Source: Xylographa opegraphella | Taxonomy: Eukaryota | DNA length: 64,000 nt | Reading direction: 5' to 3' | NCBI GenBank assembly: GCA_022813865.1 | Contig: JALDZX010000044.1 | Location: forward strand, 1 to 64,000 | Program-made: the position numbers and the translations under genes | The notes under the pieces: model-generated | The model's database searches: none | Seen by the model: the letters and a program-made list of their open reading frames with translations, nothing else | What the model was told of the DNA's origin: nothing | Shown here: positions 1-29,800 of the stretch, piece after piece | Layout: every line of letters begins with the position of its first letter | How positions within the stretch are numbered: position 1 is the first letter of the stretch

Positions 1-387
1 CACCGAATATACGATTACTGTTGCCCCCGCCCTGATCCAAATACACGTGCCTTTTAATAAATACTATATAAAGGTTTACGATTATATAAAATATTTATTC
101 GAACGGGCGAAAGCCCTTTTTCGATACTCGAACCTTCATAATACTTCGTATCGAATTGGGTAGGTCGTTTATTAGTGCGATTAGGCGAGCCGTTAGCGGC
201 TTCACCTGCGACAGTTAAAGACGAATACGAACTGGGTGTCCCGATTGGGGAGCCGATTGTCAATCATTGAAGTTGAGTAGTTTAATAGATTTAATATTCA
301 CTCTTAATGCAGTCCTCATGATGTTTACGGGGAATGGAAGTGGAGAGCACATCTCGATATATGATTTATACACACGGTTGCAAAGTG

Positions 388-3057: not shown

Positions 3058-5097
3058 ATGCCCTTTCATCGCAAGCGCCTCGGCGGAGACATTTCTGCTA
3101 TCTTCGTTCATGCTGGTGCCGGCTATCATAGCGTCCAGAATGAAAAGGTTCACTTGCAAGCCTGTGCAGAGTATGTGAACGTTACCCCAACTCGCAATCT
3201 ATGATATCGAGTGTCGAGCTGAATCCGTGCATGACAAACACTAACTTGAATCAGTGCTTCTAAAGCTGCAATGGCATTCCTAAAGAATGGAGGCTCTGCG
3301 GTCGACGCTGTTGAAGTGGCTATCAAGGTCTTGGAGGACAAGGAAATCACCAATGCTGGATACGGAAGCAATCTTGCAATTGATGGAACCGTCGAATGTG
3401 ATGCTACACTGGTTGATCATCATGGGCGAAGTGGTGCCGTGGGCGCTGTAAGCCGTACGTTACATCAATTTTGCCGTGCTACTTCTTTGTTTTCCTAATT
3501 TAACCAAGAGATCGCGAATCCAATACACCTTGCTCGACTCGTGCTAGAACATAGCAATCAACCTCTATCATTACGCCGCGTACCACCGAATCTTCTCGTT
3601 GGTCAAGGGGCCACTGATTTTGCTTTCGAATGTGGTATTCCTGTGCTACCTCATGACTTTCTCATCTCACCTGCGGCAAAAGAACGCTGGTTGAGATGGA
3701 ACCAGGACTTGAAAACGGCTAGACGACATGAAAGCGGTACTAGGTCCGATAACCATGACGCACTTGAGTACAGAGGTCATCCCGGTCTGGAACGCATGCA
3801 CAGCCGTCAGCTGCAAGGGCTCAGAAATGAGAGCCAGCCTTACTCTCCAGTGCTCACACCAACGGAGTCATCGGAAAATGGCAACCTCGAAGATTTCTTT
3901 CCACGGACCCAGCTGTCCCCTGGGCGCCCTACAGTACCCATGCACCCGCAGCTTTACGACTCGTCTCCTACGCCGCATCCTCTTTCTATTGACTCGACAC
4001 CCTTAGCACGGAGATGGGCTCCTTCCTCTTTGGAATATCAAGGCAATGACGGACACTCGTCTCATCGCCTTTACAGTTCGTCTGATGGTGAGGTGGCGGA
4101 ATATTCTGATGACGAGAGCTTCATTGATCCCGACCCCATATGGGCCACTTCCATGCCGCTAGCAGCAGTCGCTGAGGATGATTTTTCCGAGAATGAATGG
4201 GAAGCCTCAACATCACACAGCTCGATATCTACAAACTCGGTCGCATCCACTCTTCCACTTGATAGTCAGCTTGATGGTAATGCGGGTACCAATAGCAGTG
4301 AACTCTCATCCTTCGAGGACAATATCACTGATACAGTCGGGGCTATTGCAGTGGACTGTTTTGGTCACATTGCGGCTGGCTCATCCTCTGGGGGTATCGG
4401 CATGAAGCACAAGGGTCGTACAGGCCCAGCGGCATTGGTGAATATTGGCACAAGCGTAATTCCTGTTGACCCACAAGACAAGTCTCGTACATGTCTTGCA
4501 ACAGTGACTAGCGGCACCGGTGAACACATGGCCACGACCTCCGCGGCAGGTCTTTGTGCTACTCGTCTCTATTATAACCAAAAGAAAGGGAAGGCCGGAC
4601 AAATCGAGGAGACTGACGAGGAGGGAGCCATACGAGGTTTCGTGGAGAAAGACTTTATGGGTGTGTGATGATACTCGAAATTGCATATCAGAGCTTGTCA
4701 CTGACCTGCATTATTCAGGACATCCATCGGTGAAGAATAGTCACTCAGCTGGAGCTATCGGAATTATGGCAGTCAAGAAAGAAGCATGCGGAATCTGGCT
4801 TCATTTTGCGCACAACACCGATTCTTTTGTAGGTTTCCCAAAATTCACCGGAGTTCTTTCTCCTAGAGAAGAAGCTAACACTACCACTTGCAGGCTCTGG
4901 CCTCATTCCATTCCGAAGAAGTCGAACCGACTTGCGTTATGTCCCGCGGTAGGGGCAACGGTGCGATCACTTCTGGTGCTCGTTCTATAAGACATTACGA
5001 TGCACGAACCAGTGCCTCCGCCCGCAGTTCCATGGCTGATGAGCCCAAATCGAAAAAGCAAAAGATCAGTCGAGGATCCTCGTCACGACTCACGTAA
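3058..5097 (+). CDS. Taspase-1-like (threonine aspartase / asparaginase-2 family) Ntn-hydrolase
   Basis: N-terminal AIFVHAGAG, then LEDKEITNAGYGSNL...VECDA, autocleavage site D|TVGAIAVD, SSSGGIGMKHKGRTGPAA and TSGTGE motifs. Intron-containing. Confidence 0.88.
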
Positions 5098-5329
5098 TCA
5101 CATTGCGGTGGCGCTACAACTGCTTCGTTTGGTCTTGGCCTTTGATCTCTTCTACATGCGGATAGCGCTGGCATTGGAGGCAGCGACAGCGCCTTTCGTC
5201 CACCAGTTTACAAGCTCGCTGTGGGTCTTTCTGGGTTCGAGCACTATAGCTCCTCTGGTAATGTAGATATGTCACTCAGCCCAAAGATCATTTCGCACAA
5301 GATGAACAGGCTATGAAATCAAAACTTTC

Positions 5330-5421
5330 GTTCATTCATTGTGATCTAGTTTTGTTCATTCATTGTGATCTAGTTTTGTTCATTCATTGTGATCTAGTTT
5401 TGTTCATTCATTGTGATCTAG
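5330..5421. repeat. Tandem repeat, 24-bp unit GTTCATTCATTGTGATCTAGTTTT, ~3.8 perfect copies
   Basis: Units start at 5330, 5354, 5378 and 5402, in the convergent intergenic region. Confidence 0.95.
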
Positions 5422-5559
5422 GTTCATGCACGCTCGTAGCAATTCCCGGAATTTTCTCGAGATGCGTGTAGCCTATCCACTCCGTGCTCGTTCATCCTGA
5501 TCGTCATTCGCCAATGCCTTGCCCAGGTTTCCTTCCGTAACGCAGTCGATCCATCCACT

Positions 5560-6850
5560 TCAGCCCGTGGCCGGTGTTTCTGCGCCTTCCTTCCTCCCCT
5601 TGTCCTTCTTCTTACTCTTCTTCCTCATCACCACCGCCGGCTTCGCGCCATAATTCCCCAAACGCAAGTGCGTGCCGCAAGTCAAGCACACGGCCCCCTC
5701 GGGCGGCTCGCAGAAAATGCTCAGGCAGATGCTGCACACGAACCCGATGTCGACCACCTTCCGGTGGCAGAAGCACGCGGCGCGGAAGTCGACACTCGCC
5801 TGCGTGGAGCTGATCAGGTGGGCGCGGGCGGTCACGTCGGGGAGGAAGGCGTGCAGAAGGGTGGGCAGGATGCCGTGTGCGGGAGGGGCGCCGCCGGTCC
5901 CGGGTGCGTGTTGGCGGCTGTCGAGGGAGATGTACGTCCCGTTCGTGGCGTCGGCGGCTTGCTGGAGGAAGGAGGACGAGCCGGAGAGGGAGAGCACGTC
6001 GATGGGGATTTGGAGGCGTTGCGCGGCGAAGATGCAGTTCATGAACGGGATGTATTGCGCGGGCGAGGCGGCGGAGACGGACAGCACGAGGATGCGGGCT
6101 GTGAGAGTCGCGGGGGTGTTCAGGGACGAGGTTGTGGCGCCAGAGGTGGAGCTCGTGGGCGCGAGGAGCACGTTCTGCTTGTTGATATAGGAGAGTGCGA
6201 GGGTCAGAGCGCCGGCTAAGGCGGTGGTGTGCGTGGAGGAGACGGAAGCCGGGGTGGTGGTCGCGAGGAGACGCTCGAGCGAGGCGAAGATCGTGGTGGA
6301 GACCTGGTGGAATGGGCGGTAGATGTTCGCGTCGTCGGTGGGGTGTGCGGTGTTGGAGTGGGGGAGAGATGGGGTGCTGCCGATGGTGGGGGGTGGACCT
6401 CGGGGCCCGTTCAGAGTGAGTTTCGGCTTTGGGGCGGAGGGAGGGTCGTCGGCCATTTCGGTGTCGGGGTCATCAGAGTCGGGTGGGACATCGTTCGAAG
6501 GTGCTGCGGGGGTGGTGTGCGGAGCAGGGTACAGGTAGTCTGCGCGCTGGAGGTGGCTGGCGATGACGGCGACCTTGTTGGCATTGTTGAAGGCGAGGTG
6601 AGCGTTGATGAAGACGATGAGGTTGGCTACGACCTGCGAGAGGGTGAGAATGGGCTCAAGAAGGGCCCAGGCGTGGGGATTGGTGTCGAGGACGATGGTC
6701 AGCAGCGAGGTGGGTGGTTCTGTTGGGTTACGATCAGTATGGAGCTTGAGATATTGGCTGTATCTCTGTGCAAGAGTGTCTGTATTTCTCAGCTTGAGAC
6801 TTACCAGAAGATGTCCTTTCGTAGTGCTCGGTGCCGTCCACTGCGTCCAT
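5560..6850 (-). CDS. TFB4: TFIIH subunit Tfb4/p34
   Basis: SLLTIVLDTNPHAW vWA-like start, QYIPFMNCIFAAQR, C-terminal VDFRAACFCHRKVVDIGFVCSICLSIFC zinc finger. Probable start MDAVDGTEHYE at 6850, followed by an intron of ~85 nt. Confidence 0.93.
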
Positions 6851-6998
6851 GTTGACTGTGTCGGGAGACTCAACATCCTGAGGTTGGGGGGGTTTGGGTC
6901 GAAATGGGGGCTCATATGTACGCGGTTCAGTCTGCGGGATCGTGACTGCGACTGTTTGGTGTGAGTTGCTCATCGTGATATTTCTACACAGAGCTTAT

Positions 6999-7147
6999 GG
7001 TCCGTGCGAGCGTGATAGTAACAAACTTGTGGTCCGTGCAGACGTAGATTTAAGTACTCTTTGGTAAAGTGCAAGCGTAGATGTACCACAGTAAGAAGCT
7101 TGAGGTCCGTGCAGACGTAGATATAAGATTCCAGACGTGCAGATAAG
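6999..7147. repeat. Degenerate ~32-41 bp-period array of GGTCCGTGCAGACGTAGAT-like motifs in the TFB4/DAD3 divergent promoter
   Basis: Near-identical copies at 7031 and 7104; degenerate copies at 6999, 7063 and ~7135. Confidence 0.7.
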
Positions 7148-7281
7148 CACTAACAGTGGACCGACGACACTTCTGCATCTACTCCGATCGCTTCGCTTCC
7201 AGGAGTCACTCCTCGTCACTTCCGAAACATTCACTACGCTTCGTCTACTTGTGAGGTCAACTCTCTAATTCCAGTCACTTC

Positions 7282-7629
7282 ATGGCTTCCAACACTGGGT
7301 CTGACCCCACCACCACTCCGCCCAGCCATACTGCCCCGCCGCACCAATCATCGGACTCTCTGTCCCCGCTCGAGCAAGAAGTCTTGGAGGAATACGCCCT
7401 CTTGCTCGAGAACCTGAACAAAGTACGTAACGAAAGCTGCCTTTGCTAGCCTTTCAACTAATTTTATCAGCTCTCGCCCATCCTTGAGTCTCTCTCGACC
7501 AATCCCACGGCGCAAGTCCTCGACGGGTTACGCATGCTGGAACGGAAGACCAGCTTGGTCAGCACCTTGTTGAAAGCCAGTGTCTATAGTATTGTCCTGC
7601 AGCAGGAAATGCTGGAGGGGGAGGAGTGA
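7282..7629 (+). CDS. DAD3: DASH/Dam1 complex subunit Dad3 (2 exons, intron 7423-7470)
   Basis: Spliced translation ...LSPLEQEVLEEYALLLENLNK|LSPILESLSTNPTAQVLDGLRMLERKTSLVSTLLKASVYSIVLQQEMLEGEE* matches the Dad3 signature. Absent from the ORF track. Confidence 0.93.
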
Positions 7630-8207
7630 TTGGTGACTGGGATTATGAGCAGAAAGATTCTCACGTTCGAATGCGAATGATTGTATAACAGACTTTCATG
7701 TGGTGGATGGACGGTAGAAGATGACCCAATTAAGTGTATGGATGGTCTTCATGGATATTCAGCTGGAAGATCTACCAAACCCGCAATGGGGCACGCACGT
7801 AGGTACGCTGCACCTCTGCAAGAGATTCTGCCATGCCTCTAGTACTGTCAGTATACTGAGCGACTGAAGAAAGCCTTAGCATGCGACGTGGCACAAGATC
7901 AGGAACAGAAAGAAAAGAGAAGCAGTGAGCGGACGATATCAGAACATTGGGCTCAATGTACTCTATCGGTGTGCTTCTGCTGGAGGTGTGAGCTTTGTGG
8001 GACGATTGTCGACGCACTACATAGCTGAAATTGAGGCGACGTAGTGTCTCAATAGTTCACATTTTGCAGGCTTTATGAACGAGTTTTGATCAGAACGTTT
8101 GATAATTGAATCAACGGAACTCTTCCGTTTTACAACGATATTCCACGAATTCCTAGGTAGATGAAACTATATATTTCTCAGTATGTACACTAAGCTGTGT
8201 AGCACAA

Positions 8208-9560
8208 TTATACAAGCCCTCCATAATACACTTTCCGTACATCCACCAGCTTCTTTCCCCTTGCCCGTGCCACTTCTTCCGGCAATCTTTGGCTGAGTAA
8301 TGCTTGCATTGTCGCCTTCACGGTATTCATCGGATTCCGAGCTCTAGTGACACGGGCTCCAAGGTCCGATATACCGGCACATTTACAGATCTCGTAAATC
8401 AAATGCTGGCATCGTATTCCAAAGCCTAATTCTCGTTAGCCAAAATTCCAGTGATCAAGAGCCGATGTAGCTCCATGAATTGACATACCTGGCGGTCTCG
8501 TCATCAACTGCAGCTCGGTTGCGCCTACCTTCCCCTTTACATCCCCGAAGATCGTCCGCTCTTCATAACGCACCACTGGCACCATGTTCCGTATCGCATT
8601 TGCGGCGCTCTGTCGCTGCGCATCCTCCGGCTCTGTGCTTTTCCCCTCTCCAATCCCCACCATCCCATTCCCGTTCCCTGCCACGGTCAAGTAATACATA
8701 CTCTGCACTTTCCCCATTCTTGTCTGGTTGACCACTCGATGCACATTCAGGATCTTCAACCTCAGTCTCCTGATTTGTTCCAGGCTCAACCCAGTCTGCT
8801 TCATTAGCCGCTGCATATTCGGATCACTGGCAGCATCATCGCCACCCTGCCCCGCCGCTGCATTTTTCACTGCCGAGCGTGTCATGGCGTCAGTCAGCTC
8901 CGGAATCTCTGGCGCCTCGTAGCTCCGAGCATTCAACTCCGCTTCAGGCTTGCCGACCGTTAGTCGGTTACGTTTCTCGAACTCGACAAAAGATTTTGCG
9001 GGATCCGTGTCGGGTTCAAGGGAGTCGACCCACCGCGCAAGGTCGTCGGCAAACTCGTCTTCATCTTTGAAGCGGAGTTTGGGGTCGTAATTAGATTCGG
9101 ACTCACGCACGGGTTCGTCGATAACGGCGCGGATCTCAGTGAAGTCGTCGAGGTACTTGATGGCCATTGGGTCGGCGCGGATGGCACCTTGTTCGAGGAG
9201 ATCCTCAGGCGAGATGGCGGCCTCGCCAGCTTCGAGTGCGGCAAATTGGGTAGGGTCCATTGTTTGCTTCATGGTTTGTAGTTCTTTGGGCGTGTACCGT
9301 GGTAATACGTCGGCGGCGGATTTGGAGGCAGCCGTGGTCGGAGTAGTGGTGGCATCGTCGGACGTAGTGAGACCAAGGGTAGAGGCTTTGATATTCGGAA
9401 ACTTTGGAGAAGGGCGTGAGCGGTGGCTAGGTGAGGAGTGAAGGTGCTGCCGTTTTGGGAGGTTAGGGAGGATCGAGTAGGAGAGGTGTGACGGCGGTGA
9501 CGGGCGCAGAGATCTGGAGGATTTTGCGAAGACGCATCTTAGACAGTATGGGCGGCTCAT
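8208..9560 (-). CDS. MRPS5: Mitochondrial small-subunit ribosomal protein uS5m
   Basis: Arg/Ser-rich presequence, HRVVNQTRMGK...VAGNGNGMVGIGEGK, RYEERTIFG, then after an intron EICKCAGISDL...RNPMNTVKA. Confidence 0.93.
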
Positions 9561-9846
9561 TGAAGGCCGCAACCGAAGCACACACTCTACTGTTTGGTGC
9601 GTGTCTTGGTCGAATATAGTACTGATGGCCTGTTGCGAAGAATACCTAGATGTTCGATATTTGTGCACGCTTCATAAATTCTCTCAGTGCACAAATATCT
9701 TGGCGTTCGTGCTTCGACGTCAAAACTCCGGCTGTAATTTATCAGGAGTTCACAGATGTAACCTGCATGACTGCTTGGTTGACAGTACCAGTAGCTTTGT
9801 ACCCAGTATCAAAAAGAATGTTAATAACACACATTGATACTACCTC

Positions 9847-12434
9847 ATGGCTAGTAGCACAGGAAACAGTGATAGAGCAACCTGGCTGACCCAGCAAGCA
9901 CTGAAACTCGTAGCTGCTGGCAATCTTGAGGTTTCTGACCGTTCATCCAACATGTTTGCATTTACTGACTGACAGAAGACCAGGAAGGATCTCGAAAGCT
10001 ACGAGAGGCTATTTCTCTTGCACCAGACAACCAGCAAGTGAAGGCTGCTTTTGTTAAAATACAGGCAGATAGTACAATTGATGTTGTCCTCAAGCTTTGT
10101 GAGCGCTTTACCGAGAACAATGATTCAGAAGCGGGAAACGAAGCTGTATCGTACATTACTGCCCGTGGTTCCCAGATCTCCAAACCAATTGCTGTCCAAT
10201 GCCTTCAGCTCCTGATTAAGCAAAAACATGTGCAGGATAAAAAGGCCCGGGATTCGCTCGTCGCAGGCCTGCTTTTGTACTGTTCAGGTGCAAGAGAGCA
10301 TCTTGCTAAGCAACTCCAAGACTCGTTGAAAAGCTCGTTCGATGAGTATTATGAGATTGGGGATGGCTCTGCTACTGGTTTGGCTGTAGCAGTCTTGGAT
10401 CCTGCAGCTTGGGCCACAGAGGCCGTACGTGAACTTTGGGAGAAAGATGTTTTCAGACTCTTCATGGCCAAGCTATTAGAGTCAGGTAATGATCACAATG
10501 GGAGAGCTATGAGGGGTGTAGCTCGGCTCCTCACTACCGACGCAGCGAAGCTTCACGCTATCATAGACGAGGACTCTTTCGACGTAATCCTGGCATCGCT
10601 AGACAACAGATTATCATTAGAAACCCGAAGTCAAGCAACACTGGCTACCGCTAAGTACTTAGAGGTATTGGACGCAACCGGCCAAGAGCAGCTGTCCAAA
10701 TTTATCACAACCAGAATTGGAAATCATACCAGCGATGATCTTATCATTGCATTCTCTGCCGCTGCCGCAGTCTTTCCTTTGGTGCCAACAATGGCCTCCT
10801 CGCTATTCCTATCCGAAGGCTTTGTCCCGTCTTTAGCCGCCCTACTAGAGAAGGAAACAAAATCTCAAAAGGTCGAACAAGCTGCCTTGGACATGCTGAG
10901 CGCAGCTTGTGTTGATAGTGGATGCCGTGAAGCCATTCGCGAGCATTGCTTGAGATGGCTCCATATGATTATCAAAATCGGTCAAATACAGAGACAAGGA
11001 CAAGCAGCCGTTATTCTTGCTAAGGTAAAGAGTACCAATGCTTTAGATAAAGTATCTCCGCTGGGCAAAGATGCCGAAAATGATATCGGAGATGTCGTTC
11101 CAATGCTTCAGGGTATGTTACTTGATGGTGATGACACTAATAGAAAGATCTCAATTGAGGGCCTGGCATATGCATCTATGCAGGCAAAAGTCAAGGAAGA
11201 AATTGCTACTAACAAAGCTCTTCTTGAAAGGCTTACTCACGTTCAAGACGTTTCACCTTTGGCGGGATCACTGTCAATGAACGTGAGAGCACTTCCAAGC
11301 GGGCAAGATCCAATAAACATGTCTGTGGTCTTTGGTACACTTACTATCCTCGAAAATCTCACACGTTATCTCCCTCGATTATCTGAAGAACAGAAACGTA
11401 TGTCGCAGCTTAAATCATATGCGAATGCTGCACCAGCGACAATGCAGTCAGATCCCCTGGATGATGATGATCATGTTAGCGATCGCTGCAAATCCGTACT
11501 AGAAGCCAACGTGGTTCCTTACATGATTAATGTCGAACAAGTTCTCAAACCAAAAGGGCTTTCACCTTCAAATTTGGCGATGATGGCAAGAATATTGTTA
11601 TCGTTGTCAAGAACGACTCGAGCCCGGGGAAAGCTTGTACAGCAAGGAGCCATTCTCCTGCTTCGCTCAATATACGAAACCAAATCTCTGGAGAACCATG
11701 AAAAGAGACTTGCTGCTCATGCTCTCGCTCGGATTCTCATATCCGTTGATCCACAGCTGCTTATCAAGGATCGAACGGCATCCATTGTCGAGATGGTGTT
11801 ATCGCTGTTGAGAAATTCTGATGCAGACAACTCTGATGGGCCCAGAGATCTGCTTCCCGAATTTGAAGGTCTACTTGCCCTCACAAACCTTGCCCCGGAC
11901 CCTGAACTCAATGCAGGTACTCAGATTGTCAAGTCCATTTTTGATAAAATAGAGGAGCTATTGCTAAGTAGTACTCCCCTGCTACAACGGGCTGCTACTG
12001 AACTTCTCTGTAATCTCATGACCTGCCCTTTGGGTCTGCAGAAGCTCGCCGACGGTTCGAAAGTGGCGAGCCGGAGACTACACATTGTCCTTGCGCTAGC
12101 AGATGCAGAAGATATTGCTACGAGACAGGCTGCTGCTGGTGCTCTAGCTATGTTGACTGAGTGGTTCGAAGTTGTGGTGAAGGCCATATTGGAGCGGGAA
12201 CGCGGTTTGAAGATCCTGCTTACCCTTTGCGAAGACGACGAGAAAGGCTGCGTGCATAGGGGGGTTGCATGTATTCAGAATATGGTTATGACTAAAGGTG
12301 ATGTTGGTAAGAGAGCTTGTGAAGATGTCAGGGCACTGGATGGTGTTGCTGTTTTGAGGCGGGTTCTGGTGACCTGTAAGAGCAACGAGGTCATTGTTGA
12401 GAGCTGCATAAATGCTTTAGAGGCATTGACATGA
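9847..12434 (+). CDS. SHE4: UCS-domain myosin chaperone She4/CRO1/UNC-45 family
   Basis: IEGLAYAS, RGKLVQQGA, AAHALARILISVDP, FEGLLALTNLA and QRAATELLCNL UCS/ARM motifs. Probable first exon 9847-9930. Confidence 0.9.
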
Positions 12435-13439
12435 TCTACGATCGAAGGTTTATTTAATTCACATCCACGCGAATTCGAGCTATGCAAGGTCTGGTGTATT
12501 AACGATTTAACCGACGATCGTGAACTCATCGATAATGTCGTTCAGCGAACTTCTGAGCATCTAGATAATCTGGTCTTTCTGTACCGAAATCCTCCACTTT
12601 CAGGGATCATGGCACTATCTCCTGCTCTCTGATCAGATGGGGATGTTTTCCATCTTGACTCTGCTTGTCCACCGTGTTCTTATCTCTTGGTTGCCAGACA
12701 TATTTGATGTCAATGCACTGTGCCCGTCTGCCATATGGTCCCCAATTCTTTCAGTACATTGCATCAACTGATTACTACGATTGTAAACCATCAATGCTGA
12801 AGTCCCCAATAAAAACCCCATTCATGCAGTCATACGGAACAGGGCACCCTTATTCGGAACTTAGGCTACTTAGCCTGATGGATTCCAAAATACAACTGGA
12901 CCCTAGGACGCGCTTTTCAGCTATGGACAATGGATAGTATAAGTTACATGTCTAAAGCATCTTTGGAAATGACGGCCCGATTCGCATGCGTGTGGTTTTC
13001 TCAAGCCTCTGAGAACGAAGCAAAGGTTGAGACTGTGATCGGTACGACAACAGCTTGGAGATAGTGAGCGAAGGTATTATTTAAAGTCCGAAACAAATGA
13101 CTAGGGCATCAGGAGCGAACCGGAAGGTAATATTTGACAAGGTAGCAACCATGATTTACTCGGACAGTAAGAAGTCGGTAATTTCTCCCTTGCCACAATG
13201 CAGAGAATACAGACTAGAAATAACCCAAAATGTTATCGAATGCTTGATGCGCCTGAGCACGACTGTTTTCAGTTATGGAAACTTTTACTTTCCGATACTG
13301 ATTTCATTAGTGGGAGGACGAAATTATCAATGATGAAGCCATGCTAAGACAATCCACATCTCCTTACCCATGACGAGAACTTCCAGAATTTATCGAAATT
13401 TTCAACCTCGTGTCATACCCCACGTCCACCGCAAGACCC

Positions 13440-16224
13440 TCACATCATGCACCCATTCTTGACACTACTCCCCACCTCCCCACCCCCCAACCTCACCAGC
13501 CTCGTCTCCCCGCTAAGCAGCAAGTTGTACCCGAACACCTCCACCATCCACTCATACCACACCTTGCGCCCATCCGTCTGCCGCCAGATATTGACCACCA
13601 GGAGCGAGTGATCGGGCAAATACAACGGCGTCTACTCACGATCCGCAAGTATCAGCACTCCACTCCCATTCTTGGACTTTTAGCCCCTTTGGAAAAGATA
13701 TGAAGTAAAGGAAAGCATACGTACCCGCAGCGGGAAGAATATTGGGAACCAACTGATCATGCCTTCGCTCTTACGCTCCATCGTCTCCGGGTTCGTGCTC
13801 AGCTCGATGCCGGGGTACAGTACGGCTTCGAAGTACCCGCCTAGCCCGTGGCACACACCCCGGTGGCGCGTGCGGAAGCTGAGGCGCGCGTGTCGGACGT
13901 TGTGAGTGTTGAAGGAGGGGACGCTGGGCAAGGGTCCGTGGTGGAAGGACCATATGGGTAGAATGAGGGGCGAAGCGGGGAGCGGTGGCGTGGGCGTGCT
14001 GGAGTTGGCTGGCGGATCGGCGGAGGCTTTGTTCTTGCCCTTGGCGTTGGTGCTGTCGTGGTCTGGGTTGTCGGTGAACGGCTTGGTGGCCAGGCTGAGA
14101 TAGTCGATGGCGTGCAGCCAGACGACGGCGGGGGTGTCGGCCGCGGTGGGATCCCAGCTGCTGCGGGAGGAGATGTCGGCGTGCAGTTTGGGGGCGGCGA
14201 TGGGGGTCAAGAAGGCGGTGTAGGAGCGGGGGATGGAGATGCCGTAGGTTGGTGCGAGGAGGTGCAGGATGCCGTCGAGGCATTCGGGGGAAAGCTCGTT
14301 GTCGGCGAAGGAGCCGAGGAGCTCAGAGATGAGGATGTCGATCGGGTAGTGTGTAGTTTCTTCAGCGGCGCTTGAGGACTGATGAGCGGTGCTGTTCGGG
14401 AAAGGGGGAACGCTGGCAAAGGTCGAAGACGAGGGGTCACGGTGGCAGGGGCCTTTCCAGGATCGCATGTCGGACTGCACGATGGTGATAGTCCGGTCCC
14501 AGTCTTCCTTGTTGTGGCGTTGCAGGAGGACGTACGCGTTAGGGTTCTTCTCGACCGCCCACAGGTCAATTTCCACATTCTCGGCTTTGCTGGCTCGCAA
14601 CGCTCGTGTGACCAGGGGGCCCCGACCGGCTCCAGCAACAGCTACGACGACCCTTCCATCAGGGTTTGAGGTAGGTTTCCCTTCGGCTCTCCAGTCACGG
14701 AGTGCTTGACGGACGGCCTGCTCGTAGAGATCATATTTGACGGGGTCCTTCTCAAAGACTTCGTATGTCATGCTTTCCAGATTGTCTGTCAGGGGTTGTA
14801 GTGGAACTTGGAGATAGTCTTGATAGCCAGAGCCATACTTCTCCACTACTGTTCGGGGTGGTTGGCGTCTTTGTAGCCATCTGATATAGCTCAGATGAGG
14901 TGTCAAGTCGTCGGTGTGTCTGTTGGTGTTTTGAAAGCGGTCTGCGGCTTCGGCTGGAGTAGGCGAGCTTGTAGCGTCAGCGATCGTATCCGGGCTTAGG
15001 AAACCGTCGGAAACAGGTATCTTTGCTTCTGGATCGTCCAATCCAGGGATTGGTCCAACGTCACATAGAAGGATCCATGGAGTGACTTTGACACGCATAA
15101 GTTTAGTGATGAATGATTTTAGAGAATCAGATAGAACGGGTTTGTTGTGTTTGTTGTAGTTGAATGTATCGGGATTCATTGTAAGAAGCTTCACCGGCTC
15201 CGAGTACCATCTTGACCGAACGGCCAAGGGAGGAATTTCCTTCGGGAGTGATAGAGCTGTAACGATTATAGTCAGTAAACCATGCTAAAAATACCTCAAC
15301 CCTGAGCCTGCCACGGGGATGATAGGGAAAGTACCTCGACATGCTCAAGTCATCCTTCCTATGTCCAAATATTGGATCGATCATTTATCATAAGGAATCA
15401 CAGGAAAGCGACCATCAAGAGTGTTCTGGGTAATTGAGATGATATTTGATTCTTACCTACGAAAAGCCTATTGCTATATTTACATACAGTCCGTATTGTA
15501 TTCCAAGCATCCCAAGTGCCAAACATCTCTGGCTTCTGTGGCCTAAGTTCATCGACCTCATCAATGTACTCTGATCTCGTTTGCGACGCTAAATGGCCCA
15601 TTTCAGCACTCGGTTCGTCGATCGGGTCCGCAATCATTGGAAAAATGACATGAATCGAAAGATGACTGCCGATGGAAAGGGCTTCCTGCACAGCCCGTGC
15701 ATACTGTGGCGTTCCATGTGTAGCTGCATCACCATGGTATAATTTAGGACCTGGTATAAAGACATACTCAATACCACAAAAAGCTGCATATGCTACTTCC
15801 AAGTACAATACCTGCCGTGAAACATTTGAGATCAGAGGATCTGGAGAACATAAATCAATCCATGGACTAACGAACGCGAGCAACTGCGAGGTAATGTCTC
15901 CGGGTGTTAAAGGAGTATCTGGAAGGGACAAAGGAGGTATAGTGGGTATCGATGCTTGGTCGTCTCTCCCGATATTATTCTGCAGAGTTCGGGTCACCAA
16001 TTCCTGAACGCGATGACGGAAGAAAGGTGTTGTTATTGGTGTAGTAAGCATATCATACTGCAATCCTCATTAGCATGTCCCCTGTTCCACTGAGACCAGT
16101 TCCTCACATTGCAATCGTGAGCCTGATAGAGCACGCTGCTCGTTACGGGTAATGCTCGGTCAGTCTCGTGCTGGCCCACATAAAACGTGGGCATCCAATT
16201 GTCATCTTGCATAGGCGTGTCCAT
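13440..16224 (-). CDS. PRMT5: Protein arginine N-methyltransferase 5 (Hsl7/Skb1), 4 exons
   Basis: SPWIDLCS TIM-barrel region, YQDYLQVPLQPLTDNLESMTYEVFEKDPVKY, GAGRGPL, ISELLGSFADNELSPECLDG, SWFPIFFPL. Confidence 0.96.
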
Positions 16225-16570
16225 TGCGTTTGGGTAAAGAACGTAAATCGTTCCAGCACACCTAGAAGGTTATGTGGAACTAACAATAGTCATAGGATAG
16301 TCAGTGAGTAACTCGACGATTGCTATGCGCCATAGTATGTGCTCTCCGTGTAAAGACGAGGGTGGAAGACGTCTGACTTTGATGGTAGGACCCTTGCTTC
16401 GCCGTTACAGTACAAGTGCTTGACCCTTGCAAGCGTTGTCGTAAAGACCGCTCTAGAACGTATCGAGACTAGCTTGATCTACAATTTCAGATCCTATCGA
16501 TTACAGTTTCACGAGTAAGAATCATCTCCAAATCAAGAAGGAGTGGTACACATCCGTCTCCACAAATCAA

Positions 16571-19016
<2,446 letters not shown>

Positions 19017-20632: not shown

Positions 20633-23600
20633 ATGGATGAATCTTCCGTGGTCAATGTCTCTGAAGGAGACACTCCTGCTGCAACAGCTCCAGCTGCGAA
20701 CGTAGCTGCTGAAGTCGTGATCGACGGTCCCACTAACCTTGAGTCAGATTCTGACAGTATTAATTTCGAAGCACTCTACGACGCCAATCGTGGTGCATCA
20801 GAGCTACCAGGTTTGAGAGGCCTTAGCATAGTTGGATCTTCTTCAGTTATTGATCTGAACAATCGATCAACCTCTGAGCCTGACCAAGAGTCCATCAACG
20901 GTAGGCGCGTCCTAGGAGATAGATGACCTGATTCCCCCTCACTGACACAAACTTTATCAGAAGCTCCGGCCCCTGACAATCAGCTTCTGATAACTTCTTC
21001 AAGACCCCGGCGTCGGCCAACACATCTGACCATAGTGCCAATTGGGTTTCAAAATCGATCCATCGTCCTAGTTTCGACAAGGACGACTTCAATCCTTAGA
21101 CAATCCATAGGGCCACCACCGAATAGACCCCTTCCAGCATTGCCTACCACAGCAGTGGCTAGAGAACCACTCCTTGTCTGGCCTATTGCTGAACGTAATA
21201 CAGACAACTCTTCGATTTTGGTAGTGTCTGAAGAACGCGCATTGGATCCCGGAGCTCTAGAACGCAATCACGGAGTATCGGAGATCCAGGATCAATCACA
21301 ACAAGCGCAATTCGAAGCAGAACATCAACGTCGTCTAGCAGAACCTGATCAAGATATCTCTGACGTTGTAGAAGCTTCCTTTGGAGATAATTCAGACGTC
21401 TCAGGAACACCATCTTTGACCGACTCTTCTTTAATGAGTATAAAGTCAAGCGAGCTTGAGCGCGAGCTCCTGTCTGCAGCCAGTTTACCCCAGCACCGAG
21501 GCTCATACAACAGCCAGCAAAACATGGAAGATACAGGTATGTAAGCTTCTGCAGTTCCAGTAGCAATGTTAACAGCGATACAGGGGTCGTGGGTAACAAC
21601 AACGATACCGATGTTGGTGACCGTACACAACAAGAGGCAGTCCCCGAGATGACGGAGGCACGTCTCGATGGCCCGCGCCGATACAGCATGGAGGAGTTGC
21701 TGCAGCTTCGACATGTGGGAAATCGTCCTTTACATCAGCTCAATTTTCGTAGTAATGCCCCCGTTGGTAAGTCGTTCGTGTTGCCAGAATCTCCTTATGC
21801 TTCTGCAATGCACCCAGACCGACTTTGCTTCGATTGTTGTATTCTGTGTCAAGCTTGCGACCATATTATCCATTCTCCGATCGCGACTTATTGTATAGCC
21901 CTGAACGATCATCATCCCAACATTCCATATTTTGTATTGAACAAAAGACAACTTTCTTTCTTCTGTGCTTCAGAGGACTCCACTTCTGTATTGATGCTGA
22001 TATAATAACAGATCTTATTGCTCGTCACCTTATCTTGCCGGATCATACTGCAGCAAATATGCTTGTTCAAGCTCAATATTTGGAAGCCAAGGCTCGTGAA
22101 CCTTGGATGAGTGACGACGACGAAGAAGTATTTCAAGGGGGAGCGGCAGTGACCAGTACAAAGCGCTCATCTAGCGTGCCTGAAGTGCCTGAAGTCCGTG
22201 AAATAATTTGGCCCATACGTCAACCTGTCAATCCTCCAGAAAGCTTAGCTCGTCAAATATTGGAAGGCTTTGCTCGATTTCTTAAAGACCACACCTCACC
22301 GAATCACAGCAGAGTCACTGCTGGGGGTCGTGTTGTCCCAGCTGGTCCAAATTCACCACCTCCTACATTCAATATAGGATATATTGATGGCGTACTGCAA
22401 CGATTCGATCGGATCCATGAAGTTCGTAAAGCTCTTGATAAGCAGGCTCGCGACGCTGAGGGACAAGAACGTCAAAAGGCCATTGATAAGGCGGGTGCAT
22501 CTGGTGGCGATGCAGGCCCTACCCCAACCCCAACCCATAGCGCTGGCGATACTAATCCGACAAACAACGTCACTGCCAACGGAGTCGCTCTGAACGATCA
22601 ATTGAATCAAAAGCAGGTCGCTCCAAGTGGTACGCTAACACTCCCACCGCGTTCGCAGCCTTTGTTTATGGCAGAAGATGGCACAACCATTTTCCATATG
22701 GGAGGAAGCATGTTTCGGGCGGTGCTTCGAGACTCTCAGACGGTTTATGAGTTGCTCATTCCAGTACAGCCAGTTGGAAATATGTCAAATGGTGAAGAAA
22801 TATCTCAACCTATGTCGCAATCAACGATCATGGCAATGCCACCAATGGCTCCAATTTCTGTTGCACAACCATCCATGCAACCATCGTTCACCACGCAGAC
22901 GACCAACCCGGTGCATGGAATGGATTTCGTGCAAGCAACGCCGCAGATGACAGCGATGCCACAATTCGTAAATGCGCCCACACCAACGGCGATAGGACCA
23001 ATATTTCCCTCAGAAATGGTTGCAATGACTCAGTCTGTCGCATCAGGCCGTGGTTACGGGGAAAATATTCATCGCGGCGCTTATTTCCCAGTTGGAAATT
23101 CTTCTGTGCAAGACAGCCGTCGCCATGCAGGACACGAGGCGGCTCCAATGGCTGTCCAATTATACAACCCAGATGCCGCTGAGTATTCTAACCCGCAGCC
23201 TTCTCGTTACGTTCAGCTCCAGAACGTAGAGAGTCGTATGAAAAGCTTGCTTAAAACTAAGTCTGAGTTAGAGCAGCAGTGGGCTTTACAGGAACTGCAG
23301 ATGAGCCCTGAGGAAAAGATCTGGAACCGTGACCAGCTTCGAGAATGTACCGTCCAGTGCGACGAACTTCGTAGGATGAAGAAATCTTTCGAATCTTCAA
23401 TCAACACTAATTCCAACGGTCGTTCAGATCTTACCTCTTCTGGGAACAGTATGTCGACTATGTCTCGCCCGGCATTGCAAGCATATGAATATAACGGTCT
23501 TGACGGTACACGAGCATCGTTTGCCTCGATGATCCCAAATGATACTTATAATGGTGGATCTCGTAATATACAGCAGAGTACTGAAGGCCATAAGCGTTTG

Positions 23601-25542
23601 GAACATTCAGTCCTATCTCAGAGCTTTTCTGGAAATCCGGAAAATGGGATCGCATATTCCACTAATGCAGGGACCAATTCGAAGACTCTGTCGCCCAGTG
23701 CTCCATCATTTGTACCAGGTAGTATGGACGTCTCTACTCCACAAAAGCCACGGCGCGGTCACCAGAGTTCCGTAGCTAATAGGGACAAGTCATGTGAAGT
23801 CTCTTCATTCAAATCACATGGTACGACCCAAGCCGCCATGTCTGGAAGGGACTGGGCAGCTGTGATTAATCTCAACCATCCAGCGGGAGAGATCGACGAC
23901 GCTGACATGTGGTACTGCGAGGAGGCAGGGTTTAACGACCCAACAAAGCCAAAGAAATATTGTACGACCGCTCTGGAGGTTGCTTGGGTGGTGAAAAATG
24001 TCCGCCAGCAAGCCAAGCTATTGGGTTGTAAGAACGGTTCCAGTAAGGACCCCGAGTGGGACGCTGAACAAGACATCCGTCACGCTATTTTTGTTCTGAG
24101 ACGTCCGATTCCACTGGCCCCAATGCTCCCCGAGTTTGTGCGCCGAATGTGCCCATGGAGCTGGGAGGATTCTATCTTCAACATCGGTCAAGGAATGAGT
24201 CCATACTGGGTTGCCGAGCAGCACCATCGTGCTATGGGTGCTGGCCAACGCGAAGCGCAGGTCGATCTTTGGAGCCATGAACGTCTGCTTCTTCTGCAGG
24301 AGAAGCTTGCCCGTGATCAAGAGATTGCCAACGCGAATAAGTTTTTTCTGAAGGATCTTGCTCGTCGGGAATTGTCCTTTACCGCTTCATCTCGTAAGCG
24401 CAGCGAGTCCATAGTAAGCTGGGACTCCGATATGGCAAGAGCAGCCGACAAGGCTCTTGCTTCTGCCAAAAAAATAACACTGCAGAATCTTAAGCCGTTG
24501 AGTGAGTTGAAGGCAACCCCAAGCCAGAATTTCGAGGACTCTGTATTCGACAACCAGTCATATAGACGCCATGGGCAGAGGTAACTATTTCAGGAATCCT
24601 GACAAGGTTCTCGCTGACGTCGCGCAGTAATACTGTACAGCTCACTTCTGGCTACTCCGTTGACAACAATCTTCAAGAGGCAGCATCTGGTAGCTCCTAT
24701 CGACGAAGACAGGCGAATCATAGCGGTGAGAACTCGAGTTTCAACGACTCATTTTGCAATAATCAAGTGATGACTGTTCCAGTTGATAGGTGAGTGACGG
24801 CTGAAGTGAATAAACGGCGAGGTTGATTCGGGCTAACTTAATGTCGTCTAGTCCCACGAGTGACAAAAAGTCCAAGACTTTTCTGCGCAATATGCTAGAT
24901 CTGAAGGTCACAGACTGGGAGCCTCTGCCAGGTGAAACCCAGGAAGAGTTCAACGAGGCTTACTCTGCTGGCAAACGTATTTCTGGAATGGCAAATTCCG
25001 GTTCGGGCCAGAAGTCAAGTCTTGAGTTCCAGCCTACAAGACACACGACAACCAAGGAGAATCGTCCATTTCAGGACCGGCAATTCCGTAGCAAACCGAA
25101 TGAAGTTTCGTCCAGCCCCAGCGAGAGCGTACCGCATCTGCGACGAATGGGCCATAAAGCTCGTTCTTCGATGGCTTCACCAATCTTTAATGCTCAGGGC
25201 ATTGTACCTCCTGTTACCGGTATTTCATCTGTGTCTCCATGTCTGTCTTCTTCGAATCCAGGTCTTCAACGTCAGCAGGAGCATGCAACAAGCTTTCGTA
25301 ACAATCACTCGCGCCGGTTTGCTGAATCTTCTAATACGCATCAGCCAGCATTCACAGAATCTTCAGGCCCACGCAACTGGCAGACTCCCTCGCTTACTGG
25401 CCGTCATACTCGCACGCGTCCTGGCGACTATTCTTCTCAGTATCGTTCTACTGAAGATACTCTGGTATCGCCCCGCAGCCAGAATGCCTTTGGTTATGGG
25501 AATTCTTATTACCATCAGCCACCGCATTCACGACGTGGGTGA
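20633..25542 (+). CDS. Large, mostly low-complexity hypothetical protein (~1482 aa, 6 exons) with a putative eIF4E-binding motif and a PAM2 motif
   Basis: Phase-compatible introns 20901-20960, 21537-21583, 21767-22011, 24581-24627 and 24790-24851 join the ORF-track fragments into one frame. Motifs RRYSMEELLQLR and TLSPSAPSFVP; a coiled-coil-like stretch lies mid-protein. Confidence 0.8.
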
Positions 25543-26881: not shown

Positions 26882-29800
26882 ATGAAGTTCGGTCGCAACC
26901 TCCCACGCAATCAGGTGCCAGAATGGGCATCTTCGTACATCAATTACAAAGCCCTCAAGAAGCTCATCAAGAATGCAGTGGAAACATCGAGAGCTACTGG
27001 TTCCGCGGATACGGCTGGTAAGCTTCTCGCGATTGGAACCAGTCAATCACCAAACTGATATCTATAGTGTTCTTCTACTCGCTGGACAGGAACCTCGAAG
27101 ATGTTGACTCCTTTTACAAAAAGAAATACAGTGATGTTGCAAGAAGACTGAAGTTGCTCCAAGATCAGTATGGAGGGTCAAGTGATATCCTTGGTGGGCT
27201 GGACAGAGATGAAGTTGAAGATGTGATGGGAGCTCTGTTGGAGCTACGGGGGAGCTTAAGGAAGTTACAATGGTACGGAGAGGTCAATCGAAGAGGCTTC
27301 ATTAAAATCACGAAAAAGTTGGATAAGAAAGTACCCGGTGTCACAGCTCAGAGAAGATACTTAGAATCCAAGGTTGATCTCAGATCCTTCGCAACGAACT
27401 CGAGCCTTCTCGTAACCATGAAGACCGTGAACGATTGGCTTTCCATTTTAGGGGACGTCAAAGTGCTCGATGATAACAGCTCTTCCCATTCGACTCACTC
27501 CTTACCACGGGTCTCCTCCAAAGTGAATCTAAGGCTTCCTCAGGGCCTTCTAGACAGCGTTGACCAAGCCATTCGCACCGACGATTTGCCCGTCCTCATC
27601 AAGCTCATACAGGATGCATGCCTCGAGGAAAAACATGCCGAAGATGGTGCATATCAGAGGCTGCTGCTGAATCTTCTTCAACGCTCAATCTCGTGTAGAT
27701 CAAAGGTCTGCATTGCCCAGCTACTGGACATGGTCACTTCGCTTGAAGAGAAAGATGATATAAACCAGCGGAACTGTATCCACCGCCTCGTCATTTCATT
27801 AGGGCGAACGACGTGGGCAGGTGATGCTGAGAAATCAGCTCAGGTTATTGAAGAGGAGCTGGACAATGGCAAAAGCTTTATTACGCCAGCTGCAGCCCCT
27901 GTCCTTGCCCCTCCAGCTCGTGCTGCGAAGGAATCGAACGGAATCTACAGTCTCGGCAGAAATGACAAGTCCGTAATTATCCTCGAATACCTCCTTGACC
28001 GCCTCCAGCCGGACCAGAGGTCTGCGCTCCAAGCAAGAGATATCTATGGGCGAATGCCTCTTCACTATGCTGCTCAGTATGGCTTTGTCGTCATCTGCCA
28101 GATAATCATATCACACATGCAAGCTTGGGGTCAATTCGAGGTTTCCGAGGGCATTGACGCACCATTTTGGCAAGACGCAGAAGGTTGGGCGCCTCTTCAC
28201 CTCAGTGTGATCGGTGGCCATCCATTGACCACGAAGACACTGCTTGAAGCTGAGGGCTGGCGGGGAGTGCAAGATCGCAAGGCCGCTGTTCGCAAGCACA
28301 TGTCTAAGTCAAGTCAAGTCCTTGCTCTGGCTACGAAATCCAAATTCACGATCATCGTGCAACTCCTTGTTGATGCTGGGGTAGATCTGAATTATCAAGA
28401 CGATCAAGGTGAATCAGCTCTGCATATAGCAGCACGATTTGGACATTCAGAATGTGCTGGAATTCTTCTCAAAGGCTCTGATGGTCGCAAGATTGATCTT
28501 GAATTGACAGAGAATACGTATGGTTGGACGGCACTTTTCGTGGCATGTGTCGACGGCCATCTCCAGGTGGCCGAAATGCTCATTGAAGCTGGGGCTAATT
28601 TGACACGGTGTGATACATCGGGATGGACCTGCACAGAGCATGCGGCATTAAGAGGTCATTTGGAGATTGCACGTAAATTAGTGCTAACGATACCACCGAA
28701 GCTGTCCAATTCGGAATTGCTCACAAAGAACCCGTCGCCTCCGACCTCTTCCCTTGCTGAACGAAAGTCGAATAGTCTTGTGGGTGGCAATGGAGCTTCT
28801 CGTACCCCCGAACCCGTGAAGTCGTTTGGTCATCGATACCTTACCAAGGAGAGTATGATTCTTGTTAGTCTAGGTACGATGGATATGAGGAAAGCCATCG
28901 AAGCTGTCAAGTTGGATCGTATTCCATTCGCCGATGCTCATCATACTCAATTGGATACTGCTTTATCGGTAGTAGTATCGGCCACTGGAGCTAATGGCGA
29001 ACCGTCCATCGTGGACTTACCGGTACAAGATAATATTAGTACCGATCCAATCGTTTTCACTGCGATTGATGCAACAAAGGTTAAGCTTCTATTCGACATT
29101 GTTCCGACGTATGCTGGTTCGAAAGACAAGATTGTTGCACGAGGTGTAGCACTTCTCTCCAGTATCAAACCATTTATCGGCTCCAAGCGTATAACACTTC
29201 AAGGAGATGTTACCGTACCAATAGTTGCGGCTCACAATCTTGATGTCATCGGTTCGGTCAATTTCAATTTCCTCATCATCACTCCTTTCAAGCATCCAAA
29301 TATGTCCATTACGGAGAATCAGACATATTGGAAGAGCATGACGTCGACAATGGTAATCGGACATCGAGGTAATGGCAACGTTGTTTGGGTCTGAATATTG
29401 GTTTCCTAATTCTCTTAAAGGGTTGGGCAAGAACATGGCATCGAGAACATCGTTACAGCTTGGCGAGAATACTATTCAGGTGATTGTGTCACAATTCTCA
29501 CAGAGATTTGTTCTGACTTTGGTTATAGTCCTTCATTGCTGCTGCAAATCTTGGAGCATCATATGTTGAGGTAGTACATACCCCTTCGTCATGTAGGGCT
29601 TTGTTGCTGACATGATCTAGTTTGGTACGATTCTCTAGGCTATCATTTCTCGTATATACGATTGACACAACCTAGATGTCCAACTGACAAAGGACCATGT
29701 ACCTGTAATCTATCACGATTTTCTTGTCAGTGAAACGGGCATTGACGCGCCAGTACACACACTTACACTTGAGCAAGTGTGTATTCATAGCTTGATAAGA

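Follow-up and report, generated by a model that had tools for sequence, protein, structure and literature searches.

Can one fungal protein contact both the cap-binding factor eIF4E and the poly(A)-binding protein Pab1 of an mRNA? The question is raised by a gene at positions 20633-25542 of the DNA analyzed here, a stretch of 64,000 nucleotides (nt) from Xylographa opegraphella (positions 1 to 64,000 of contig JALDZX010000044.1, assembly GCA_022813865.1; hereafter the window), a lichen-forming fungus that taxonomy look-up places in the Lecanoromycetes. An earlier note, made from the sequence alone, had described there an uncharacterised protein of ~1480 amino acids (aa) with an eIF4E-binding motif in exon 3 and a PAM2 motif in exon 4, and had read it as a filamentous-fungal scaffold that could act as a translational repressor or ribonucleoprotein-granule factor. 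In a 2020 review, the known fungal eIF4E-binding proteins (4E-BPs), p20 and Eap1, are described from Saccharomycotina only, Pezizomycotina not being analyzed (PMC7139794; here and below, statements citing this source, PMC6061780, PMC2854688 or 10.1101/455378 refer to parts of those texts). We find a six-exon gene whose product belongs to a family of uncharacterised proteins, in which both motifs are conserved more strongly than the sequence around them. The reading that we favor, at a probability of about one half, is that the family consists of eIF4E-binding messenger ribonucleoprotein (mRNP) scaffolds, PAM2-bearing in most lineages, that would repress or store mRNAs.

The family was delineated with a profile built from the 17 first matches, which, searched against 1.84 billion cluster representatives, returned 531 matches at E<=1e-3, of which 333 reach E<=1e-10 and 218 reach E<=1e-30. 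Names and taxa are those of the best 150 of the 531 profile matches plus other sequence matches, and the range of the family that they give is a provisional one. Among the matches listed, members were found in Lecanoromycetes (Xylographa, Lambiella, Caloplaca, Wetmoreana, Fulgogasparrea, Psora, Bacidia, Agyrium and Puttea) and in Eurotiomycetes (many Aspergillus, as well as Penicillium, Paecilomyces, Talaromyces, Thermoascus, Penicilliopsis, Arthroderma, Ascosphaera, Fonsecaea, Capronia and Endocarpon), where the class of all but three genera, those confirmed by taxonomy look-up, is presumed. The term 'filamentous-fungal' in the earlier note was too broad for this distribution, as the named members that we saw are either Lecanoromycetes or Eurotiomycetes. 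Tractable species with a named member include A. niger, A. oryzae, A. terreus and P. rubens. The record names seen are 'hypothetical', 'uncharacterized', 'predicted' or 'unnamed'; none of these proteins is characterised, and Pfam has no model for the family. Four Eurotiales records (P0013, P0174, P0212 and P0216) are exceptions in that an enzyme, either a histidine acid phosphatase (PF00328) or one with a ferric-reductase-type domain (PF01794), is fused to the family protein and gives the record its name; these are probably merged models of neighboring genes, and a source of misannotation. In the open-access literature, we found no paper on the family, on a Pezizomycotina 4E-BP, or on a protein combining an eIF4E-type motif with PAM2.

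Of the two motifs, we consider first the PAM2-like one. The PAM2-pattern stretch reported earlier at about 23680-23720 corresponds to SKTLSPSAPSFVPG. Within the family, the pattern [LFM][SNH][PVA].A..[FWY].P occurs in 112 of 162 sequences, compared with 0.37 on average and never more than 3 over 200 shuffles, and the logo of the motif reads K-x-L-S-P-x-A-P-[PA]-F-[VI]-P-[SG], its flanks carrying 0.5-1 bit. Correspondingly, aa 902-911 (LSP.AP.FVP) stand out as a sharp island in the family alignment, and identity within Xylographa is 0.79 for the motif vs 0.36 and 0.41 for its flanks. Contacts of PAM2 with the MLLE domain are made by Leu3, by the residue at position 5, frequently Pro or Val, by Ala7 and Phe10, both invariant, and by Pro12, positions 6 and 8 being exposed (PMC2854688). 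All five contact positions are kept at canonical spacing in our protein, as L902, P904, A906, F909 and P911; across the motif-bearing sequences, Leu is found in 106/112, the first Pro in 104/112 and Phe in 107/112, while the Ala and the last Pro are required by the search pattern. Some lineages come nearer to the PAM2 consensus xxLNxxAxEFxP (PMC4466420), namely the Chaetothyriales, with L-N-V-x-A-A-x-Y-[VI]-P, and Endocarpon (Verrucariales) and its relatives, with [LF]-N-V-x-A-x-A-W-V-P. From this pattern of conservation, the motif probably binds the MLLE domain of Pab1.

The second motif, in exon 3, had been placed by the earlier note at 21682-21702, and YSMEELL is encoded exactly there (Y315-SMEE-L320-L321), conforming to the canonical Y-X4-L-Phi pattern. 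Because this pattern is common by chance (we estimate about one bare YxxxxL-Phi in a protein of this length), its presence means little and it is the conservation that carries weight. We anchored the family sequences on the core R[VI][TS]AGG[RK] and looked for YxxxxL-Phi 85-150 aa upstream. The motif was found in 27 of 33 gene models with at least 135 residues upstream of the core, in 19/39 with 95-134 residues and in none of the 71 with fewer than 95; 19 further models do not contain the core pattern. It lies 94-147 aa upstream of the core in 46 sequences. When the search interval was widened to 60-180 aa, 29 of the 33 long models contained the motif, as against 1.3 on average, and at most 5, over 500 shuffles of the upstream region. 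The four long models that lack it have an unrelated N-terminus running into a conserved ...ENIFK-type stretch after the intron, and look like cases of intron read-through. Among the 33 models with a long N-terminus, 21 carry the Tyr motif together with the PAM2-like motif, and 8 carry the Tyr motif only.

The consensus of 49 motif-bearing sequences is [RK]-Y-[DS]-I-x-T-L-L-x-[LI]-[GRS], with flanks at ~0.7-1.5 bits, and it extends beyond the bare pattern: Arg or Lys precedes the Tyr in 32/49, Leu, Ile or Met is found at +8 in 45/49, and Gly, Arg or Ser occupies +9. The Arg/Lys at +2 of the extended metazoan consensus is replaced by Ile; a fungal eIF4G likewise does without it (PMC6061780). Identity within Xylographa is 0.72 over aa 313-324 vs 0.53 and 0.50 in the flanks. 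The motif follows directly after the initiator Met in Eurotiales, and is placed further in in Chaetothyriales, Onygenales and Lecanoromycetes. In known ligands, the canonical eIF4E-binding helix has the form YX4L-Phi, the residue before the Tyr, a Lys in p20, touches eIF4E at an acidic patch of its dorsal surface, and the p20 motif sits at the extreme N-terminus (PMC6061780). Fungal eIF4G, p20 and Eap1 are moreover bipartite, a non-canonical hydrophobic element binding the lateral surface in addition to the canonical one (PMC6061780). Downstream of the family's motif, hydrophobic positions are conserved at +19 (Leu or Phe in 37/49) and at +21, and by analogy aa 331-350 could possibly be such a lateral-surface stretch. 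The features of the Tyr motif are thus compatible with those of known eIF4E ligands, and on balance we lean towards binding of eIF4E by this candidate motif. Alignment of orthologues, which the earlier note had suggested, bears out its expectation for both motifs, as each is conserved selectively relative to its flanks, family-wide as well as within the genus.

The gene model underlying these comparisons was built from the window sequence and its stop-to-stop open reading frames (ORFs). Spliced by script, the six exons translate into 1482 codons with one terminal stop, in agreement with the ~1480 aa of the earlier note, and the protein ends in ...PPHSRRG. All five introns (60, 47, 245, 47 and 62 nt) are of the GT..AG type with a CTRAY-like branch site. 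A database entry from the same species (P0001, a 'hypothetical protein' of 1401 aa) shows 100% identity over exon 4, and its splice sites match those of our model, exon 3 included, the sole difference being a longer intron 1 (20901-21202) that removes 81 residues (aa 90-170) where the reading frame is open. Full-length orthologues from three other Xylographa species (P0003, P0004 and P0006) keep the segment matching aa 90-170; for this reason, and because the frame is open, we prefer the 1482-aa model, in which the 60-nt intron 20901-20960 is more likely than the longer one. Exon 3 is on average 0.55 identical to its counterparts in the three congeners, within the range of 0.38-0.66 for the other exons, so exon 3 behaves as coding sequence.

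Two features of the N-terminal half of the gene deserve mention. Intron 3 (21767-22011), at 245 nt, is 4-5 times as long as the other introns, and the frame of exon 4 is open through most of it (ORF 21771-24584), which leads ORF-based callers to start inside the intron. Such starts probably explain many family models with a truncated or junk N-terminus and no Tyr motif; two ORF-type gene-caller models (P0002 and P0005) consist of exon 4 alone. Exons 1-2 (20633-21536) encode an extension of ~280 aa N-terminal to the Tyr motif, a length found, among the members examined, only in Xylographa. It contains a conserved block, SDSDSINFEALYDA...ELPGLRGLSIVGS (aa 37-69), that is near-identical in four species.

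A number of observations weigh against the favored reading. As regards the Tyr motif, bare YxxxxL-Phi is present in about 15% of yeast proteins and is by itself a weak predictor (PMC7139794), and the 49-sequence logo was drawn from sequences selected for the motif, which fixes Y, L and Phi by construction. The evidence that exon 3 is spliced into the mRNA consists of gene prediction and conservation. Furthermore, Ile at +2 (41/49), Thr at +4 (38/49) and Pro at +3 (12/49) are not required for eIF4E binding, and may point to another or an additional constraint or partner. As regards the PAM2-like motif, Asn4 and Glu9 of the consensus are not kept, position 4 being Ser in 107/112 and position 9 being Pro or Ala, or Ser in X. 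opegraphella. The Pfam PAM2 model (PF07145) gives 14.2 bits (E=0.036) on the X. opegraphella protein, below its cut-off of 20 bits; of 45 members scanned, 10 have a match (E<=0.1) at that site, and even the highest-scoring of them, with 19.7 bits, stays under the cut-off. As regards the family as a whole, members from Aspergillus, Penicillium and Onygenales have neither the PAM2-like motif nor the C-terminal domain, and it follows that dual contact with eIF4E and Pab1 is not the core function of the family. Lastly, the best-conserved element of the protein, GFARFLKxHxSPxHxRVTAGGRIVP, finds no explanation in a reading based on cap and poly(A) tail. The scaffold proposal of the earlier note thus survives in part: the conservation of the motifs and a layout studded with them fit an mRNP scaffold, but the pair of motifs does not define the family and its best-conserved parts are unexplained. 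The simplest history would be that both motifs are ancestral and that PAM2 was lost in Eurotiomycetidae.

The conserved Ile(+2) and Thr(+4), which exceed what the eIF4E consensus needs, together with the Pro at +3, would be accounted for if the protein were an mRNP scaffold with a genuine PAM2 whose N-terminal helix binds something other than eIF4E, perhaps a factor of mRNA decay or repression, for instance a DEAD-box helicase, an LSm-type domain or a surface of the NOT module, the likeness to YxxxxL-Phi being incidental. The frequency of the pattern in proteomes (PMC7139794) and the presence of further conserved linear motifs, pointing to a scaffold with several partners, also speak for this explanation. 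On the other hand, the basic residue at -1, the hydrophobic residue at +8, the hydrophobic stretch downstream and the N-terminal placement in Eurotiales all fit eIF4E ligands, and no result in our analysis suggests an alternative partner. We therefore regard a non-eIF4E partner as rather unlikely.

More radically, neither motif might work as proposed, the protein having a role outside mRNA metabolism and the PAM2-like peptide either binding a partner other than Pab1 or being structural or phospho-regulated. Such a role would agree with the sub-threshold PAM2 scores, with neighboring genes that give no functional hint, and with searches of Pfam, PDB sequences and folds, none of which returned a significant match to an RNA-related family or structure. 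Specifically, no Pfam family except PAM2 recurs in the 45 members scanned together with exon 4 of the window; neither the exon 3 peptide (60 aa) nor the PAM2 region (46 aa) has any match at E<=10 among PDB sequences; and the family profile gave only chance-level rows against PDB sequences, namely influenza hemagglutinin at E 0.09-1.4 and coiled-coil chains at E 3.6-9.7. The A. niger orthologue, when looked up in the ESM Atlas, led to 'hypothetical protein' clusters only. What makes this explanation improbable in our view is that over 100 divergent sequences, with flanks that are not conserved, keep the five MLLE-contact positions nearly unchanged and canonically spaced, a degree of conservation that is hard to explain without an MLLE-type pocket.

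To return to the favored reading, the protein has the architecture of a scaffold, a long and mostly disordered chain along which a helical region, one small domain and five or more short motifs, each conserved separately, are placed. The scaffold would be one for cytoplasmic mRNPs. In the mechanism that we envisage, the N-proximal helix [RK]-Y-x4-L-L-x-[LI] would compete with eIF4G for docking on eIF4E's dorsal surface, and the conserved hydrophobic stretch 15-35 residues further on may reach the lateral surface. The mid-protein L-S-P-x-A-P-x-F-V-P would dock in the MLLE domain of Pab1, so that one molecule could hold the cap-bound and the tail-bound factors of the same mRNA without eIF4G. The resulting closed loop would be unable to recruit the ribosome, leading to repression or storage of the mRNA. 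Additional effectors would be recruited through the GFARFLK...RVTAGGRIVP island, through the Trp motifs and through the folded C-terminal domain. Both binding events and the repressive outcome are what we infer from the conserved motifs.

Metazoan 4E-T-type scaffolds are long and disordered, with an N-terminal bipartite eIF4E-binding region followed by short motifs that recruit repression and decay factors. From this general description they resemble the family in layout, and to our knowledge 4E-T has no PAM2. Known from fungi are p20 (Caf20) and Eap1, which share with the family a YX4L-Phi helix preceded by a basic residue; a linker and a non-canonical hydrophobic element come next in them, for which the family has a candidate counterpart, and p20 has its motif at the extreme N-terminus like the Eurotiales members (PMC6061780). 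Eap1, like the X. opegraphella protein, is a larger protein with several partners, and in the parts of PMC7139794 cited here neither p20 nor Eap1 is described with a PAM2. The family differs from both in its own invariant island and, in Lecanoromycetes, in a folded domain without a solved relative. For p20/Caf20, Eap1 and 4E-T, which were compared by way of the Pfam and PDB libraries rather than pairwise, no PDB chain matched the motif exon or the family profile.

The one established factor that contacts both eIF4E, through YX4L-Phi, and the poly(A)-binding protein, closing the mRNA loop, is eIF4G (PMC7139794). Pfam searches found no MIF4G or other eIF4G domain in the X. opegraphella protein or in family members. 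The contact between eIF4G and poly(A)-binding protein uses a different site and is not known to involve PAM2 and MLLE, and the X. opegraphella protein would mimic the eIF4G bridge without recruiting eIF4A or eIF3. A further likeness is to the silencing domain of GW182/TNRC6, where a PAM2 (PMC4466420) lies in disordered sequence together with dispersed Trp motifs flanked by Ser and Asp. GW motifs recruit CCR4-NOT (10.1101/455378), and it would be pure speculation, by analogy, to assign the family's Trp motifs a part in deadenylase recruitment. Unlike GW182, the family has no Argonaute-binding GW-rich region and no RNA recognition motif, and GW182 for its part has no eIF4E-binding motif.

Upa2 and Upa1, which act in endosomal mRNA transport, are likewise fungal proteins of large size and disordered sequence; they combine PAM2 with a coiled coil, an unmapped effector region in the N-terminal part and a short motif at the C-terminal end (10.1101/455378; PMC4466420). 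Upa2 of Ustilago maydis has four PAM2 motifs, a dimerising coiled coil and a C-terminal GWW anchor, and couples Pab1-bound mRNAs to their carrier (10.1101/455378). The layout of the X. opegraphella protein is similar, with a conserved island in its N-terminal part, helical sequence at the center, a PAM2-like motif and, near the C-terminus, a short motif that is conserved; the protein could then be a scaffold for transport or localisation analogous to Upa2. We compared the two by description rather than by sequence, and consider the analogy very unlikely to hold. Our protein has one PAM2-like site instead of four and ends in ...HSRRG instead of GWW; the preprint on Upa2 describes its orthologues for basidiomycetes only (10.1101/455378). 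Both Upa proteins are basidiomycete-specific, Upa1 has a FYVE domain, and an eIF4E-type motif is reported in neither. Since the PAM2 motifs are dispensable in Upa2 (10.1101/455378), the analogy would also say little about mechanism.

With the known fungal 4E-BPs confined to Saccharomycotina in the account of PMC7139794, the role of a 4E-BP is unfilled in the clade of Lecanoromycetes and Eurotiomycetes, and the family is a concrete and testable candidate for the modulation of eIF4E in Aspergillus, Penicillium, black yeasts and lichen fungi. Short-motif ligands of eIF4E and of the poly(A)-binding protein are already known; what is new is the combination, the clade and the unexplained modules. 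If the favored reading is true, a protein with both an eIF4E-type motif and PAM2 would represent a new way of coupling mRNA ends for repression. A bolder version, which is possible but which we hold to be doubtful, is that this is the first eIF4E-binding family of Pezizomycotina and the first class anywhere to combine a 4E-binding motif with PAM2, forming a 'false closed loop' clamp that hands the mRNA to effectors through the GFARFLK...RVTAGGRIVP peptide, the Trp motifs and a ~150-aa domain of a fold not among solved structures. The invariant 25-residue peptide and the confidently predicted domain without a structural relative are of interest whatever the Tyr motif binds. The coordinates of all features are given in Table 1.

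Table 1. Features of the X. opegraphella gene and its product. Positions refer to the window, residues to the 1482-aa protein.
Feature	Position	Residues (aa)	Strand	Remarks
Whole coding region	20633-25542	1482 aa	+	ATG to TGA, six exons, 4449-nt coding sequence
Exon 1	20633-20900	1-89 and first base of codon 90	+	mean identity to three congeners 0.56
Exon 2	20961-21536	90-281	+	mean congener identity 0.38
Exon 3	21584-21766	282-342	+	bears the YxxxxL-Phi motif; mean congener identity 0.55
Exon 4	22012-24580	343-1198	+	
Exon 5	24628-24789	1199-1252	+	
Exon 6	24852-25542	1253-1482 and stop	+	
Candidate canonical eIF4E-binding motif RRYSMEELLQLR	21676-21711	Y315, L320, L321	+	exon 3; Y..L-Phi at 21682-21702
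Hydrophobic stretch LHQLNFRSNAPV/DLIARHL	21730-22034	331-350	+	split by intron 3 (21767-22011); conserved across the exon 3/4 junction
Invariant island P.RQP..PP...GFARFLKDHTSPNHSRVTAGGRVVPAGPNSPPP	22209-22352	409-456	+	strongest of five islands
Four-stranded beta-meander	22656-22757	558-591	+	AlphaFold2 pLDDT about 94 (model residues 164-197); conserved island
Helix-prone region	23217-23384	about 745-800	+	'coiled coil' of the earlier note; conserved island
PAM2-pattern stretch SKTLSPSAPSFVPG	23679-23720	899-912	+	exon 4
PAM2-like motif KTLSPSAPSFVPG	23682-23720	900-912	+	exon 4
C-terminal folded domain	23847-24314	955-1110	+	conserved core aa 975-1066, YCTT...GC.NGSSKDPEWDAEQD...PIPL...PW.W.DS.FN
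Basic/Ser/acidic Trp motif RKRSESIVSWDSD	24393-24431	1137-1149	+	
C-terminal motif SPIFNAQGIVPPVTG	25177-25221	1362-1376	+	includes NAQGIVPPVTG, aa 1366-1376
Conserved islands		409-456, 553-590, 750-800, 902-911, 975-1066		MAFFT alignment of 160 sequences

Apart from the two motifs, the protein holds several conserved parts. When 160 family sequences were aligned with MAFFT and mapped to the 1482-aa protein, five islands emerged from variable sequence; the Tyr motif is not on the map, since gene models extending N-terminally as far as this motif make up less than half. Of the islands that the earlier note quoted, FARFLKDHTSPNHSRVTAGGRVVP occupies aa 429-452, and DMWYC...KKYCTT...DPEWDAEQDI spans aa 974-1031. 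The strongest island follows the pattern P.RQP..PP...GFARFLK.H.SP.H.RVTAGGR.VP.GP.SPPP, with 13 residues (G, F, F, S, P, R, V, T, A, G, G, R and V) invariant in an alignment of 60 sequences. An AlphaFold2 model of aa 395-600, with a predicted local distance difference test (pLDDT) score of 73 and a predicted template modeling (pTM) score of 0.33, shows an amphipathic helix over LARQILEGFARFLKDH (aa 421-436), a low-confidence extended stretch over RVTAGGRVVP and a long helix at aa 464-505. In this model the invariant island looks like a linear motif that would fold on a partner. We also tried two candidate functions for the GFARFLK island and rejected both: as a non-canonical 4E motif it lies too far downstream (~100 aa), and as an RVxF phosphatase site it is without an aromatic residue at the required place. 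For the helix-prone region at aa 745-800, the matches of the profile to coiled-coil chains among PDB sequences (E 3.6-9.7) are non-significant.

The C-terminal domain is not explained by the cap and poly(A) idea either. Its AlphaFold2 model (aa 955-1110, from a 58-row alignment) is compact and mainly helical, with a mean pLDDT of 91.6 and a pTM of 0.88. Foldseek against the PDB returned no match at E<=0.001 (best E 2.4), and VIA-align against 48,161 representative chains returned 17 with Z>=2 and none with Z>=5, the best at Z 3.0 with a root-mean-square deviation of 7.2 over 68 aligned residues. By the guidance that comes with VIA-align, unmatched models typically reach Z 7-8, so this model is unusually isolated; lack of a match, however, does not prove a new fold. 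The ESM Atlas gave no usable match to the domain, and a word-limited search for it in other protein contexts turned up only 8 members of the family. The domain signature KDP.[YWF][DN]AE[QE]D is found in 100 of the 169 stored proteins, and all 100 of these also have the PAM2-like motif.

In the 64,000-nt window, the genes upstream (563-19000, from Pfam searches of long ORFs) encode an actin-family protein, an asparaginase, Tfb4, mitochondrial ribosomal protein S5, an UNC45-like protein, PRMT5 (two exons, - strand) and a DEAH/HA2 helicase (16932-18890, +). Downstream (27000-63000) are genes for an SPX-ankyrin-GDE1 protein (27022-29391, +), a TRF telomere-repeat factor, a CPAF-like PDZ protein, an NPHP3_N/ankyrin protein (43195-46944), Mre11 and a protein kinase. 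By the same searches, no translation factor is encoded among the flanking genes, and neither eIF4E nor Pab1 in the window.

Two further short motifs lie towards the C-terminus. The Trp motif [KR][RK]xDSW was found in 49 of 162 members, often in 2-3 copies, vs a shuffle mean of 8.1 and a maximum of 16; the X. opegraphella copy, with VSW, falls outside this strict count. Its fuller form, [KR][RK]xDSW[DA][ST], is present in both branches of the family. The pattern N-[AV]-x-[AG]-..-[LV]-P-..-[DT]-G of the C-terminal motif occurs in 24 of 162 members vs a shuffle mean of 0.33. This motif is common to the X. opegraphella protein, a Caloplaca member and many Aspergillus and Onygenales members, and its first half resembles the LNVxA start of the Chaetothyriales PAM2 variants.

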